From: Escherichia coli
GTDB lineage: Bacteria; Pseudomonadota; Gammaproteobacteria; Enterobacterales; Enterobacteriaceae
Length of the DNA stretch: 64,000 nucleotides
Assembly: GCF_003334405.1 (NCBI RefSeq)
Contig: NZ_QOWM01000018.1
Direction: 5' to 3' (one strand)
A program made the position numbers and the translations under genes. Shown piece by piece: positions 39,015 to 48,728 of this stretch; position 1 is the stretch's first letter, and every line of letters begins with the position of its first letter. The notes under the pieces were generated by a model, which was not told the DNA's origin, searched no databases, and saw only the letters and a list, made by a program, of their open reading frames with translations.

Positions 39015-39330
39015 TCATCTCCCGGAGGAGCGAAGCTCCTTCTGCCGTCCGGGTCTTCGGGGATTTCCCCGCAGTGGACCTTTCCGACGGGGGACGCTCA
39101 CCACGTCACGGGGCAGTTGTCCGGGGGCAGACGCAAAAGTTTTTGACGCCTGCGGCAAAAAGTTTTGTGGCTGGTACATCTCTCCCCTGGATGACTGAAA
39201 CGGGATGTGGTCGTGTATGTACCCCCGGAAAGTCCGTCTGCGGAGAACGGGCCGCAGGGCGGCGGCAGGCAGGCAGAGAGAACTGCGCCATCAGGCGCAG
39301 TGGCCTTACACACCGTAAGGTGTGCAGGGA
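39015..39330. promoter_or_regulatory. structured repeat family 1, copy A (Frpo/ssi-like single-strand promoter candidate), truncated
   Basis: aligns with 41880-42375 and 48225-48728; lies 5' of the minus-strand gene 38125-38973. Confidence 0.55.
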
Positions 39331-39450
39331 GCGCCGCATCCGGCGCGACCGGAGAAAACCGACGGCACAACAACGGCATGCGGTGGTCACTGGTACACCA
39401 CTCCCGCACAGGTGAAAACAGAGAAAACCGCACGACATCTACAACTAAAA

Positions 39451-39552
39451 AAAGTGAAATTTCTTCACTTTTTTACACTTATTTATTGCGTTGATTTGGT
39501 GATTGTGATGATAAAATAAAGTGAAGTTTTTTCACTTTTTCAAAGGTGTTTT
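39451..39552 (+). promoter_or_regulatory. promoter flanked by two palindromic operators AAAGTGAA-N6-TTCACTTT
   Basis: palindromes at 39451-39471 and 39518-39540; -35 TTGATT 39491-39496. Confidence 0.5.
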
Positions 39553-39804
39553 ATGACCGGCTGGGAACTGCGAATCTGGCGAAAAAGCATGCTCTGGTCA
39601 CGCGAAAAAGCGGCCAGAGAATTTGGCGTGACACAGAGAACATGGCACGCCTGGGAAAATGCGGATCAGGTGGATGTCACCGTCTGGAGGACCACCCAGG
39701 CACTTTCAGTCCGTGACCTGCTGCCTCACATGCAGGGGATGCGCAAGGCAGATATCATCAGGCGTCTGGAAAATGAACTGGGGGAAACGGCAGAGGATGT
39801 GTGA
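39553..39804 (+). CDS. small helix-turn-helix (XRE/Cro-like) DNA-binding protein
   Basis: 83 aa; HTH-like segment WSREKAAREFGVTQRTWHAWENA; only plus-strand gene in the leading region. Confidence 0.55.
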   Translation: MTGWELRIWRKSMLWSREKAAREFGVTQRTWHAWENADQVDVTVWRTTQALSVRDLLPHMQGMRKADIIRRLENELGETAEDV

Positions 39805-39834
39805 GCGTGATTCACAGCCTGGCTGAATGCCAGG

Positions 39835-39993
39835 CTACTGCTCATCAGGAAACAGTTTTTTCAGTTCTTCACCGGAAAGTCCGGTCGCCTCCTGAATCCG
39901 TTCCGGCGGCCAGCCCATATCCCGCAGCCGGCAGGCTATTTCCCGCGCCACTTCAAGAGCGCCTTTTTGAATAAGACGTTCTGCAATCGTCAT
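39835..39993 (-). CDS. free-standing RpnS-like small protein (homolog of Rpn C-terminal tail)
   Basis: 52 aa from ATG 39993: MTIAERLIQKGALEVAREIACRLRDMGWPPERIQEATGLSGEELKKLFPDEQ, parallels the last 61 aa of adjacent Rpn. Confidence 0.45.
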   Translation of the reverse strand: MTIAERLIQKGALEVAREIACRLRDMGWPPERIQEATGLSGEELKKLFPDEQ

Positions 39994-40055
39994 GCTGTTT
40001 GCTCTGCTCCTGCTGGCAAAAAAGCCCGGGATTTTGCCGGGCTTTGCGGTTCTCA

Positions 40056-45318: not shown

Positions 45319-47277
45319 TCAGGCGGCATCAGCCAGGTTAGCGGTGTGTTCAGTGGCATCCGTCTGTGGACGTGGCGCACACATCCAGCCAGGCACCCAG
45401 CGGTTGTCTTTCATATGGAACTCTGCATGTTCAGCCGCATCGCCTTTCTTCATTTTCTCCGCGTCCCGTGCGGCACCGGACAGTCCGGCCTCATTCAGGG
45501 CTGCGATAATCTGCGGCTTTTTCAGGTGTCCGAAGAAGTTTGCTTTTGTCGGCTGCCACCAGTCGCGCATGTGAAAACCGATGGCGCTCTCCAGCGTGTC
45601 CAGCGGGCTGCGTGACGTGTGACCACACTCACGGGTCTGGACACCGTTAAGGCTGCACGCGGTGCAGAAACTGAGCAGGGATAACAGCACCTCCTGACTG
45701 AGTGACAGGAACGTCGTCATGTCCCGTGACCATCCCTCCGGTAACAGGGCCGCAAGACGGGCTTTTTCTGCCATCATCGACAGGAATGCGGCACCTTCCT
45801 TCCCTGACGGCGCATCGCTGGTCAGCGAATAATGTTTACATTCCAGGCTGATTTGTGCTGGTTTACTGTACGCTCCGCTGCCAAACACATTCAGGCAGAG
45901 CGTCCACGCCAGCAGTGCCAGAGATTTGTCCGGTTGCTGCATCAGTGCCGCCTGGACTGCCAGCGTGCGTTCGGAAGACATTTTCGTCAGCAGTGGCAGA
46001 CTGATTTCCTCCACTGATGCTTTCTCCTGCACCTGTTCCGTGCGGTCAGCGTCGTCAGCAGCGTCATCTTCACTGCGCAACTGCACACCACGCTGGACAC
46101 ACACATTACCGTAACGCCAGGACACCACCACACCGCTTCCGGCACGCATCTCCGGCGTCCACGCCCTGACCTTCGCCATGCAGCGCATCAGCTTCATTTC
46201 TGCTTCCAGCAGGTCGGATTCCTCACACTGGTTTTCCAGCGCGTCGTAACGCGTCATCAGTTCGTTCAGGCGTTCTTCTTCCGCCTCCGTCAGCACCGCT
46301 TCCGGCTCCGGCAGACAGCGGTATGTTCCGGCATCCTCACGGCACTCACCGACAGGCTCCATGCGCCCGGCGCACCATTCCCAGCCTTCGGCTTCCCGAA
46401 GGTGTTCAGCGACAGCCTGGAGTTTTTCCAGCAGGGCAGCATCGAGTGCCACGCAGTCCACATAGCCACCCTCGTCGTCGCTGAACAAATCGGTGCGCAG
46501 TTCATCTGGCGAGAAGGCATCAGCCCCCACGAAGCGGAATTTACTGTTCCCTGCCACCGCCACTTCACTTTCGGTCACCAGACGACGAATGGTCTGCACT
46601 TCCGGTTTACCGCCCCATCCCGACTGACAGGCGGCTTCAAACACCTGCACCTGACGCGCGGTGTCGTTCTCCAGCGCCAGCGCTTGACAGTGTTCGGTGG
46701 TGATGCGGTCTTCTGCCAGCGCATCGAGGATGACAGGCGCAAGGTCTGCCAGTTTCAGCATTCGCTGAACGTGGCGGGGTGAATAGCCCAGCAGGTCGCC
46801 AATCTGCGCAGATGTTTTGCCTTCCTGCGCCAATGCGCGGAATCCGGCAATCTGTTCGGCAGGGTGCATATCCCGACGATGACCGTTCTCGGTCATCGAT
46901 GCGGCAGTCGCCAGTTCCTGCGGGATGACCTTCACACGGACAGGCCAGTCAGCCGGAAGGATGTTGCGCTCTGCCAGCATGTTGAGTGCAGCCAGTCGGC
47001 GACCACCTGCGGCGACACCGTAACGGTCACCAGGCAGGGTATGCACGACCAGATTCTGCAACAGGCCAACGCCCTTAATGGACTCAGCCAGTTCGCTGAC
47101 GGACTCCACAGAATACGGCACCGTGCGCACATTCAGCGGTGATTTAATCAGTGAGGCCAGCGGCACGCTCACTTCCTCCGTCTGCGCCAGCAGGGCAGAC
47201 AGGGCAGTTTCCTGCGTTTTTGCAGATTTACGGCTTGCTTTGCGGGTGGTTTCTGGTTCACACTTCGTTACAGGCAT
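45319..47277 (-). CDS. ParB-like nuclease-domain protein of leading region
   Basis: 652 aa from ATG 47277; ParB N-domain motif VAAGGRRLAALNMLAE. Confidence 0.65.
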   Translation of the reverse strand: MPVTKCEPETTRKASRKSAKTQETALSALLAQTEEVSVPLASLIKSPLNVRTVPYSVESVSELAESIKGVGLLQNLVVHTLPGDRYGVAAGGRRLAALNMLAERNILPADWPVRVKVIPQELATAASMTENGHRRDMHPAEQIAGFRALAQEGKTSAQIGDLLGYSPRHVQRMLKLADLAPVILDALAEDRITTEHCQALALENDTARQVQVFEAACQSGWGGKPEVQTIRRLVTESEVAVAGNSKFRFVGADAFSPDELRTDLFSDDEGGYVDCVALDAALLEKLQAVAEHLREAEGWEWCAGRMEPVGECREDAGTYRCLPEPEAVLTEAEEERLNELMTRYDALENQCEESDLLEAEMKLMRCMAKVRAWTPEMRAGSGVVVSWRYGNVCVQRGVQLRSEDDAADDADRTEQVQEKASVEEISLPLLTKMSSERTLAVQAALMQQPDKSLALLAWTLCLNVFGSGAYSKPAQISLECKHYSLTSDAPSGKEGAAFLSMMAEKARLAALLPEGWSRDMTTFLSLSQEVLLSLLSFCTACSLNGVQTRECGHTSRSPLDTLESAIGFHMRDWWQPTKANFFGHLKKPQIIAALNEAGLSGAARDAEKMKKGDAAEHAEFHMKDNRWVPGWMCAPRPQTDATEHTANLADAA

Positions 47278-47335
47278 AATCATCCCCTTATAATTGCTTA
47301 TGTCCTGCCGGACGTTCGCGCGTCCGGCACCTCTC

Positions 47336-47575
47336 TTACTTAAGAATCCCGAAATCACGGATGGCATGGTTCATCCAGTACCCGGCACCGTCCTCAAAAT
47401 TCCAGGTACGCCAGACCATTGTTCCGTTATTACGGACAACCAGGCGAAAATGTTCTCCGTGGTCATCCTCGATAAAGACGTTCCGGTACTGTGCGGCAAC
47501 GGCTTCGGCATGTTTGCGGGTAAAAGGACCGTCAGGCAGTCCCTGAAGTATTCTGAAATATTCGCTCATTCTCAT
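47336..47575 (-). CDS. hypothetical small leading-region protein
   Basis: 79 aa, between ssb and ParB-like gene. Confidence 0.55.
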
Positions 47576-47626
47576 ATCTCCGGTGATGCCCCGCGCAGGG
47601 CGGGGCGGTTATCACAGTCAGGCCAG

Positions 47627-48157
47627 TCAGAACGGGATATCGTCTGAAAACCCGTAATCGTCACCCTCCGGCGGTTGCGGCTGAGGCTCCGGCTGCGCGG
47701 CCTTTCGTCCACGGCCTTTCGTTTTCGCGCCACCTTTTTTCGTGGCAGCCTCCGGCTGAGGCTGACCGCTGAACTGTGGTGTGCCGTCCGGCTGAGTCTG
47801 AGTTCCTGCGGCACGTCCCAGCATCTGCATGGTGCCCGTGGTTTTAACAAGGATTTCGGTGACGTAGCGGGTGACACCGTTGTTGTCCTCCCAGCTACGG
47901 GTGCGAAGCTGGCCTTCGATGTAGACCTGCGCGCCCTTGCGCAGATATTCACCGGCCACTTCCGCGAGCTTGTCGAACAGCACCACGCGGTGCCATTCCG
48001 TCAGTTCCTTAATTTCTCCCGTCTGTTTGTCGCGCCAGCTTTCTGACGTGGCCACCTGCAGGTTTGCCACTGCGCCCCCGTTGGGGATGTAACGGACTTC
48101 CGGATCATTGCCCAGACGCCCGACGAGGATGACCTTGTTGATACCACGTGCACTCAT
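47627..48157 (-). CDS. ssb: plasmid single-stranded DNA-binding protein
   Basis: 176 aa; OB-fold N-terminus [23 protein letters not shown], Gly/Pro/Gln-rich linker, acidic tail DDIPF. Confidence 0.9.
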
Positions 48158-48224
48158 AAGAACCTCCTGACTGAAAGATGTGAGATAAACCGGATACCGG
48201 CGACGGGACGTTCATGTGCCCCTT

Positions 48225-48728
48225 CAGAGGAGCGAAAGCTCCTCCTGCCGTCCACTTCACAGGGGTTTCTCCCCGCAGTGGACCTTTCCGATGGGGGCCC
48301 GTTTACCGCCTCACGGGACAGCTGTCCGGGGGCGGACGCAAAATTTTTTGCCGGGTTCATGGCTAAAAATTTTGTGGCCGGTGCATCTCACCCTGGACAG
48401 ATGGAACGGGAGGGGGTTACGTCTGCCCCCCGGAAAGGTCCACAGCGGGGAAACAGGCCGCAGAGGTGGCGGCAGGAGGGAAGACTGCTGCGCCATCAGG
48501 CGCAGTTTCCTCACACACCGTCAGGTGTGCAGGGAGCGCAGGTTACGGCGCGACAGAGGCGGCGCGACCGGAACGGTCGCTGCAAGCCCGGGTTTTCACG
48601 CATCGGACCGTAGCGACAGCCCGAAACCGCGCCAGCGGGTTCGGCGGAGACTGGCGGGTGCGCAAGCAGCTGCCTGTCGGAGTCGGGCCTGACGACCGGA
48701 TGCCGCCAGGCAGCCGGGAGCCGAAGTG
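48225..48728. promoter_or_regulatory. structured repeat family 1, copy C (Frpo/ssi-like single-strand promoter candidate) 5' of ssb
   Basis: ~500 bp near-identical to copy B. Confidence 0.6.

Follow-up and report, generated by a model that had tools for sequence, protein, structure and literature searches.

Gene content and transferred strand

The stretch analysed here (64,000 nt of contig NZ_QOWM01000018.1 from the Escherichia coli assembly GCF_003334405.1, hereafter the window, its written strand being the + strand) contains three paralogous, non-coding, hairpin-rich units (copies A, B and C; Table 1), which are most probably the single-stranded DNA (ssDNA) promoters ssi1, ssi2 and ssi3 of an IncI1 plasmid. 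Following the annotation of plasmid pEK204, the gene order comprises trbABC, nikB, nikA and a MobC-like gene, then a DUF4942 gene, a helix-turn-helix (HTH) regulator gene, an Rpn-family gene and two small open reading frames (ORFs), followed by ardA, a 597-nt ORF, psiA, psiB, a ParB-like gene, a DUF905 gene and ssb, and finally a klcA-like antirestriction gene and a DNA methylase gene. On sequence grounds, this order is typical for an IncI1 leading region, and the window is identified by similarity as the leading region of an IncI1 conjugative plasmid; the 571 nt around copy B showed 100% identity to many IncI1 plasmids. The minus strand carries every leading gene except the MobC-like and HTH genes.

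The motif CATCCTG|T follows the inverted repeat of the origin of transfer (oriT) on the + strand, and the nick is predicted on this strand between 37562 and 37563 (after G37562) from YATCCTG|Y, the nick-region consensus of IncP/IncI plasmids. This position is supported by an independent check, because base 1 of the ColIb-P9 leading-region entry AJ238399, in which ssi1 occupies 1459-1787, would correspond to approximately 37565 in the window, within 3 nt of it. As the + strand would be nicked after G37562 and move 5' to 3' rightwards, it would be the template for the minus-strand genes. The three elements lie 3' of the nick, at distances of ~1.5, 4.3 and 10.7 kb.

Three paralogous units upstream of minus-strand operons

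The first-pass annotation of this DNA, made from the letters alone, had proposed three paralogous repeat copies at these sites. Pairwise homology bore this out, as did two words found exactly three times each in the 64-kb window, always on the + strand: the 21-mer CCCCGCAGTGGACCTTTCCGA (0.00 expected in shuffles) and the 18-mer CTGCGCCATCAGGCGCAG (0.06 expected in shuffles). The limits, set here by BLAST against reference sequences, agreed broadly with those first given, except that the end assigned to copy A (39330) had fallen about 20 nt short of the real one (39349). Copy A had also been described as truncated; its full 327-nt unit is present, and only the ~170-nt extension found after copies B and C is missing. 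As proposed, each unit lies 5' of a minus-strand gene block (led by the DUF4942 ORF, the ORF of 144 amino acids (aa), and ssb, respectively), with 46 nt (A), 51 nt (B) and 66 nt (C) between the end of the upstream unit and the start of the ORF.

The gaps between aligned copies are mostly of 1, 2 or 5 nt, and the conservation of the elements therefore does not keep a reading frame. None of the nine ORFs running through the elements matched an NCBIfam family, and the longest translate to low-complexity Ala/Arg/Gly-rich sequence; a protein-coding explanation was rejected on this basis, and the earlier view of a frame-independent conservation at the nucleotide level holds. A 'hypothetical protein' is annotated across ssi hairpins or the extension in NZ_CP071714 (9054-9674), NZ_CP080256 (1548-1796) and F (9808-10164). 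These annotations are probably spurious, because the frames are not conserved between copies and match no family.

Such database entries, together with the three dispersed copies carrying long spurious ORFs and the exchange of segments between copies, could also be read as traces of a small mobile or repetitive extragenic palindromic (REP)-like element, or of decayed protein genes, left without a role of their own. This is scarcely credible given the constant position and orientation of the elements before the same operons in IncI1, I-gamma, K2/Z and F plasmids, the compensatory changes that maintain pairing, the indels that break frame and the absence of any protein family match. No terminal inverted repeats, target duplications or copy-linked transposase were seen; likewise, homology to a mobile element or protein gene, which the first-pass annotation had named as an observation that would speak against its proposal, did not emerge from the NCBIfam comparison, the reading frames or the positions of the elements in the plasmids examined.

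Identity with published class 1 promoters

The elements ssi1, ssi2 and ssi3 of the IncI1 plasmid ColIb-P9 were reportedly described by Bates et al. in 1999 and Nasim et al. in 2004. The homologous repeats of ColIb-P9 bear the names ssi1-3 as cited in later papers. The window copies were aligned to the reference Frpo/ssi sequences given in Supplementary Table 2 of Samuel et al. (Nature 2024; PMC11541004), a study that detected 13,089 homologues of Frpo across 6,006 conjugative elements. Copy A was 97.9% identical to ColIb-P9 ssi1 over 327 nt and 98.5% to its counterpart in pESBL-EA11, copy B 99.4% to ssi2 over 326 nt and 99.7% to the pESBL-EA11 copy, and copy C 99.1% to ssi3 over 333 nt and 98.2% to the pESBL-EA11 copy. 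The alignment with ColIb-P9 suggested by the first-pass annotation, at 97.9-99.4% identity, thus agrees with its reading of the repeats as Frpo/ssi-type ssDNA promoters in an IncI1-like leading region. Moreover, the leading region of the window is collinear with pESBL-EA11 at ~96% identity. The order of the elements, their spacing from oriT, their orientation and their downstream operons are all the same here as in ColIb-P9 and pESBL-EA11, and the copies differ by few point differences only. The published ssi units measure 326-331 nt, and the ~170-nt extension after ssi2 and ssi3 falls outside them.

In recipients of pESBL-EA11, six operons were found by RNA sequencing to be induced, up to ~500-fold at 15 min (Wen et al., NAR 2025; PMC12672017). 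Upstream of each operon lies a region that folds as a large hairpin; of these, ssi1-3 were named 'class 1', those 5' of ardA and klcA 'class 2', and the one 5' of M.EcoGIX 'class 3'; a start mapped by 5' rapid amplification of cDNA ends (5' RACE) for each of the six promoters matched the prediction (PMC12672017). The activity of these promoters is lost upon conversion to duplex (PMC12672017, PMC9849209). A consensus scan detected no linear sigma-70 promoter on either strand of any copy, and a position-weight scan gave no hit conserved between copies, which fits the published silence of the duplex form.

Identity, strand, position, fold, covariation and the absence of a linear promoter or of coding capacity were computed here; promoter activity, transcription starts, early induction and priming are taken from the literature. 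With a probability of about 0.93, the three elements correspond to ssi1, ssi2 and ssi3, the class 1 (Frpo-type) ssDNA promoters of the IncI1 leading region. As far as identity goes, they are already known, and their detection is a rediscovery of the published ssi1-3, the type examples for IncI1 plasmids.

An Rfam search of 41800-42600 at a permissive threshold gave only noise, the best score, 21.8 bits, lying below the gathering score of 63. Contigs were also scanned with the pattern TGTCCGGGGGN{45,75}CCCTGGA for distant relatives; this pattern proved too loose, and the loci listed came from unrelated taxa and were attributed to chance, none matching the ssi references by BLAST.

The paralogues swap segments. 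In the IncK2/Z plasmid NZ_CP103572, an ssi3-type element (6087-6410, 95% identity to copy C) occupies the ssi1 position, and the ssi2 of I-gamma/K plasmids (NZ_AP027158, 9001-9325) has an ssi1-like apex. Such patterns imply, from the alignments, gene conversion or recombination between dispersed repeats.

Folding and covariation of the + strand

Folded as ssDNA, a check proposed in the first-pass annotation, the + strand yielded -101.8 kcal/mol for copy A (z-score, z = -6.7), -111.6 kcal/mol for copy B (z = -8.3) and -116.0 kcal/mol for copy C (z = -11.2), the values ranging overall from -97 to -116 kcal/mol; the proposed folding in the plus strand thus holds. The dominant feature of each fold is an imperfect hairpin of ~230 nt, flanked by a small 5' hairpin and by three short 3' hairpins; the latter contain the short inverted repeats quoted in the first-pass annotation, which are real and carried by all three copies. 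The + strand was more stable than its complement by 16.1 (ssi1), 11.9 (ssi2) and 17.5 (ssi3) kcal/mol, and the asymmetry had the same sign in F Frpo1/2 and in both class 2 elements (7/7).

A scan of all 64 kb applied the published threshold of -75 kcal/mol to 300-nt windows folded with DNA parameters. The + strand stretches below it were ssi1, both ssi2 and ssi3 (each together with its extension), the class 2 sites at ardA and klcA, the class 3 hairpin and one coding stretch. This last, a candidate hairpin at 61381-61680 that just passed the threshold, was rejected, having a z of only -0.45 and lying inside a GC-rich ORF. When 3186 windows were ranked by the stability of the + over the - strand, ssi1 came 1st, ssi3 2nd and ssi2 4th. 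The 3rd strongest asymmetry (-14.9 kcal/mol) belonged to 55401-55700, a moderate fold (-53.7 kcal/mol) inside the + strand ORF 54994-56268 and outside the known set of hairpin promoters.

Covariation was assessed on 14 distinct copies from IncI1, I-gamma/K1 and K2/Z plasmids, for which RNAalifold gave a consensus of 101 pairs. Standard pairs occupied 99.1% of the 1411 pair cells (1315 Watson-Crick, 84 G·T; 2 further cells were A·C), and the same consensus structure was 93.3% paired on the complementary strand. Changes on both sides occurred in 10 pairs, compared to 1-3 in controls with partners slid by 1-3 columns, and the covariation score was 0.111 against 0.019-0.045 in these controls. Covariation and strand asymmetry are independent computational support for the published model.

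The same data bear on whether the structure works in RNA rather than in DNA, as the 5' leader of the operon downstream or the 3' end of that upstream. Palindromic hairpins form in both alike, the minus-strand sense folds well (z = -7.6), part of the 5' arm is probably transcribed, and the extension shows no strand preference in folding. Such an RNA would, however, have the minus-strand sequence, in which the 84 G·T cells become A·C mismatches, pairing falls from 99.1% to 93.3% and fold stability drops by 12-18 kcal/mol. Nor would a transcript that begins within the hairpin ever include the two arms together, and the published loss of activity on conversion to duplex also speaks against a function in RNA, which is accordingly rated as very improbable.

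A tentative promoter layout within the hairpin

The class 2 hairpins of the window carry TTGCAT-15-TAAGAT on their 3' arm, with the AA of TAAGAT unpaired in an internal loop; the 3' arm would therefore be the non-template strand, and transcription would run from apex to base along the 5' arm. These boxes are more recognisable than those of class 1. Along the 3' arm of the class 1 elements, the order is an A/T apex stem, a bulge, an invariant duplex, 17 paired or near-paired positions, a loop and a 16-bp helix. The conserved bulge has similar counterparts in F elements (GTGCATTTCA) and Salmonella elements (GTTCATTTCA). In ssi2 and ssi3, TGGAC(A/T) within the invariant duplex matches TTGACA at 4-5 of the 6 positions; IncI, F, Serratia and insect-metagenome elements retain the box, and it is altered in those of Salmonella, which depart precisely in TGGACA. 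The Salmonella elements differ in -35 and -10 according to Samuel et al. (PMC11541004). The internal loop (~8 by 9 nt) is always open in the 14-copy consensus and variable in sequence, and the 16-bp helix after it is perfectly conserved. F Frpo1/2 and the insect-metagenome element have the same feature order, and the internal loop of Frpo1/2 is in the same place.

From this modelled arrangement, a tentative layout can be drawn in which the 3' arm is non-template, the A/T apex is UP-like, TGGAC(A/T) acts as the -35 and the open loop as the -10; with the same reserve, transcription of ssi2 would start near 41945-41952. Other placements would need impossible spacings and were rejected: a -10 in either the right-arm bulge or the A/T tract of the apex, and a -35 located on the 5' arm.

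Several points weigh against the identification of the elements as ssDNA promoters, or against details of it. Promoter activity of these very copies would be carried over from pESBL-EA11 copies of 98.2-99.7% identity, and the homology with F Frpo is limited to 80-116 nt at 74-81%. The complement also folds far beyond chance (z = -7.6), so that the strand cannot be chosen on hairpin potential alone. The 14 copies used for covariation are related and exchange segments by recombination, making the independent events fewer than the cells counted, and the consensus structure was predicted on the + strand, with some resulting bias towards G·T over A·C. The candidate -10 is non-canonical (TTACTC, TTACGT, TCGTGT), two of its paired bases swap between the IncI and F families, which goes against a base-specific reading there, and the placement of -35 and -10 in the model is tentative.

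Comparison with other single-strand promoters and origins

Frpo (ssiD) of plasmid F is said to have been described by Masai and Arai in 1997. In F, Frpo (ssiD, Frpo1; ssp1a) and Frpo2 (ssp1b) also form a long hairpin of the transferred strand, with leading genes (the ssb-psiB operon and ygeA) directly downstream. F ssiD (= Frpo1, 98% to NC_002483) and Frpo2 matched the central 80-116 nt of the window elements at 74-81% identity, plus ~30-70 nt at the 3' end. The A/T apex, the right-arm bulge, the TGTCCGGGGG/CCCCTGGAC box, the loop distances and the last small hairpin are common to both, whereas the lower stems of F Frpo are unrelated in sequence; the alignment to F Frpo proposed by the first-pass annotation could thus be made for the apex and not for the lower stems. 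Deletion of Frpo1 and Frpo2 in F abolishes early expression (Couturier et al. 2023; PMC9849209). According to the summaries in PMC7690428 and PMC9849209, the F Frpo stem-loop rebuilds -35 and -10, E. coli RNA polymerase transcribes it in vitro, and DNA synthesis can be primed by the resulting RNA.

The elements might instead be mainly priming sites for complementary-strand synthesis (ssi signals or primosome assembly), with gene expression secondary, which is highly improbable. The name ssi itself derives from priming assays; the elements lie 46-66 nt from start codons of correctly oriented genes, and IncI1 plasmids are known to carry their own primase. The 'primosome site' label given in the first-pass annotation gained no separate support, as F ssiE, a different type of ssi, had no match in the window at E < 1e-3. 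Frpo transcripts persist as RNA-DNA hybrids that DNA polymerase III uses in vitro (PMC7690428), and early conversion near the F ssp1/Frpo promoters is rifampicin-sensitive (bioRxiv 10.64898/2026.01.09.698686), but priming as described in these studies needs the same promoter activity and is therefore not a separate mechanism (PMC7690428, bioRxiv 10.64898/2026.01.09.698686). The strong operon induction in recipients (PMC12672017) likewise favours single-strand promoters over sites devoted to priming.

The class 2 and class 3 hairpins share with ssi1-3 the leading region, the strand and the position of long hairpins before early operons. The class 2 copies stand directly 5' of ardA (42558-43058, minus strand) and of the klcA-like antirestriction gene (49586-50011, minus strand), fold into a ~240-nt hairpin on the + strand and are 95% identical to F 56395-56747 (NC_002483). 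The corresponding ssp2 hairpin of F was recently reported to stall complementary-strand synthesis. The class 3 stretch shares 96% identity with the pESBL-EA11 sequence 5' of M.EcoGIX. No alignment was obtained between the three elements and 43076-43375, 50030-50329 or 52608-52950, which are separate repeat families.

In the minus-strand origins of phages M13/f1 and the single-strand origins of rolling-circle plasmids, ssDNA hairpins are read as a promoter by host RNA polymerase, which makes a primer. These origins make a short primer only and drive no operons, and no sequence relation to ssi was found. The comparison with such origins is drawn in PMC7690428.

Table 1. Coordinates of the single-strand promoter units, their structural parts and associated features in the 64,000-nt window
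Feature	Position	Strand	Description
ssi1 (copy A)	39023..39349	+	Predicted class 1 single-strand promoter, complete 327-nt unit; main hairpin 39041-39269
ssi2 (copy B)	41881..42206	+	Predicted class 1 single-strand promoter, 326 nt; main hairpin 41900-42129
ssi3 (copy C)	48224..48556	+	Predicted class 1 single-strand promoter, 333 nt; main hairpin 48244-48476
A/T-rich apex stem of ssi2, right arm	42018..42032	+	GCTAAAAATTTTGTG, pairs with 41993-42008; UP-element-like (putative label)
Apex stem equivalents	39155-39169 (ssi1), 48362-48376 (ssi3)	+	Part common with F Frpo1/2, 74-81%
Right-arm bulge of ssi2	42037..42046	+	GTATATCTTC; 10-11 nt, conserved, unpaired in every fold and consensus
Bulge equivalents	39174-39184, 48381-48390	+	GTACATCTCTC and GTGCATCTCA, respectively; consensus GTAYATCTYY
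Candidate -35 of ssi2	42050..42055	+	TGGACT in invariant duplex TGTCCGGGGG/CCCCTGGAC; putative assignment
Candidate -35 equivalents	39188-39193, 48394-48399	+	TGGATG and TGGACA, respectively
Internal loop of ssi2	42073..42081	+	TTACTCCAG, 17 nt past candidate -35, opposite 41953-41960; candidate pre-melted -10, low confidence
Internal loop equivalents	39211-39221, 48417-48426	+	
Three short hairpins 3' of ssi2 main hairpin	42137..42201	+	CTGCGCC-ATCA-GGCGCAG, CACACC-GTCA-GGTGTG, GCGCCG-TTTC-CGGCGC
Equivalents of the three short hairpins	39282-39346, 48487-48551	+	Stems kept, loops vary; inside published ssi units
Extension after ssi2	42207..42376		Array of short perfect hairpins, ~170 nt
Extension after ssi3, second copy	48557..48728		95% identical to 42207-42376
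First gene downstream of ssi1	38125..38976	-	DUF4942 protein, 283 aa
First gene downstream of ssi2	41395..41829	-	144-aa hypothetical protein; then 88-aa ORF, Rpn-family gene
ssb, first gene of ssi3 operon	47627..48157	-	Operon ssb, DUF905, ParB-like, psiB, psiA, 209-aa ORF
Class 2 promoter copies	43076-43375, 50030-50329	+ (fold)	300-nt repeat, 99% identical; match published class 2 (ssp2 of F)
Class 3 promoter	~52620-52900	+ (fold)	-91.7 kcal/mol per 300 nt; directly 5' of DNA methylase 51924-52607 (minus)
oriT core	37517..37567	+	Inverted repeat CAATTGTAATA...TATTACAATTG then GCACATCCTG|TCCCG; adjoins nikA/nikB
HTH regulator gene	39553-39804	+	Next to A/T-rich palindromes

An extension module after ssi2 and ssi3

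The extension that follows ssi2 and ssi3 folds equally well on both strands and matched no Rfam entry and no protein family. It was found in >5000 plasmid records and was 95.7-100% identical in the IncI1, I-gamma, K2/Z and IncF plasmids fetched, an identity that held where the neighbouring promoter hairpin falls to 85-90% (88-90% for the ssi2 core). F itself keeps only its first ~40-50 nt. The extension occurs only where a co-oriented operon ends upstream, and the minus strand from the upstream operons to the promoters showed no canonical intrinsic terminator.

It is not accounted for in the literature consulted on ssi promoters. That it forms a functional module of its own is conceivable, though rather unlikely. 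It might insulate the next single-strand promoter, keeping read-through polymerase from melting it, or, by analogy with the F ssp2 hairpin, act as a barrier delaying complementary-strand synthesis and so prolonging early expression. The high identity might, on the other hand, be no more than a sign of recent recombination between plasmids.

A 40-nt segment with the hairpin GGCAGGC-GTAA-GCCTGCC is repeated at 42476-42515 and 48852-48891, just 3' of ardA and of a 63-aa ORF (48929-49120), respectively, where the operons upstream of ssi2 and ssi3 end. In the minus-strand RNA, no U run follows this hairpin.

Other features of the window

Between ssi1 and the HTH gene, two A/T-rich palindromes lie at 39447-39475 (AAAAAGTGAAATTTCTTCACTTTTT) and 39517-39541 (AAAGTGAAGTTTTTTCACTTT), which by sequence resemble operators; the second is overlapped by a promoter-like site on the minus strand, GTGAAA-16-TATCAT (39535 to 39508). 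Further along, a 110-nt direct repeat (39856-39965 and 40068-40177, 75% identity) is present, and a 73-aa ORF (39835-40056) duplicates the C-terminal end of the adjoining Rpn-family gene (40056-41027).

On the transfer-gene side of nikB, Rfam matches were found to the sok antitoxin RNA (29516-29673, 134 bits, minus strand) and to the AgrB antisense RNA (28804-28891, 58.5 bits, + strand), both of which are type I toxin-antitoxin loci. They were the only matches of Rfam 15 at the gathering score over the window, and neither lies in the three elements.

Proposed mechanism and significance

During conjugation, the + strand would be nicked at oriT (~37562|37563) and enter the recipient 5' end first, the three elements arriving ~1.5, 4.3 and 10.7 kb behind the nick. 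Before the complement is made, each would fold into its ~230-nt imperfect hairpin, the stem of which would mimic duplex promoter DNA. Host sigma-70 RNA polymerase could then bind the hairpin and transcribe leftwards, templated first by the 5' arm and then by the DNA downstream. The early products would be the DUF4942 protein (ssi1), the 144-aa protein and its neighbours (ssi2), and Ssb, PsiB and PsiA (ssi3), and the same transcripts could prime complementary-strand synthesis. Once the DNA is double-stranded, the hairpin could no longer form and expression would stop.

For the window itself, the use of these results lies mainly in annotation, as they fix the transferred strand and six early operons, and they bring no new biology beyond computational support for the published model. 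Through ssDNA promoters, anti-restriction, SOS-inhibition and ssDNA-binding genes are switched on within seconds of entry, before the plasmid is double-stranded, and this early expression plays a central part in the establishment of resistance plasmids in new hosts.

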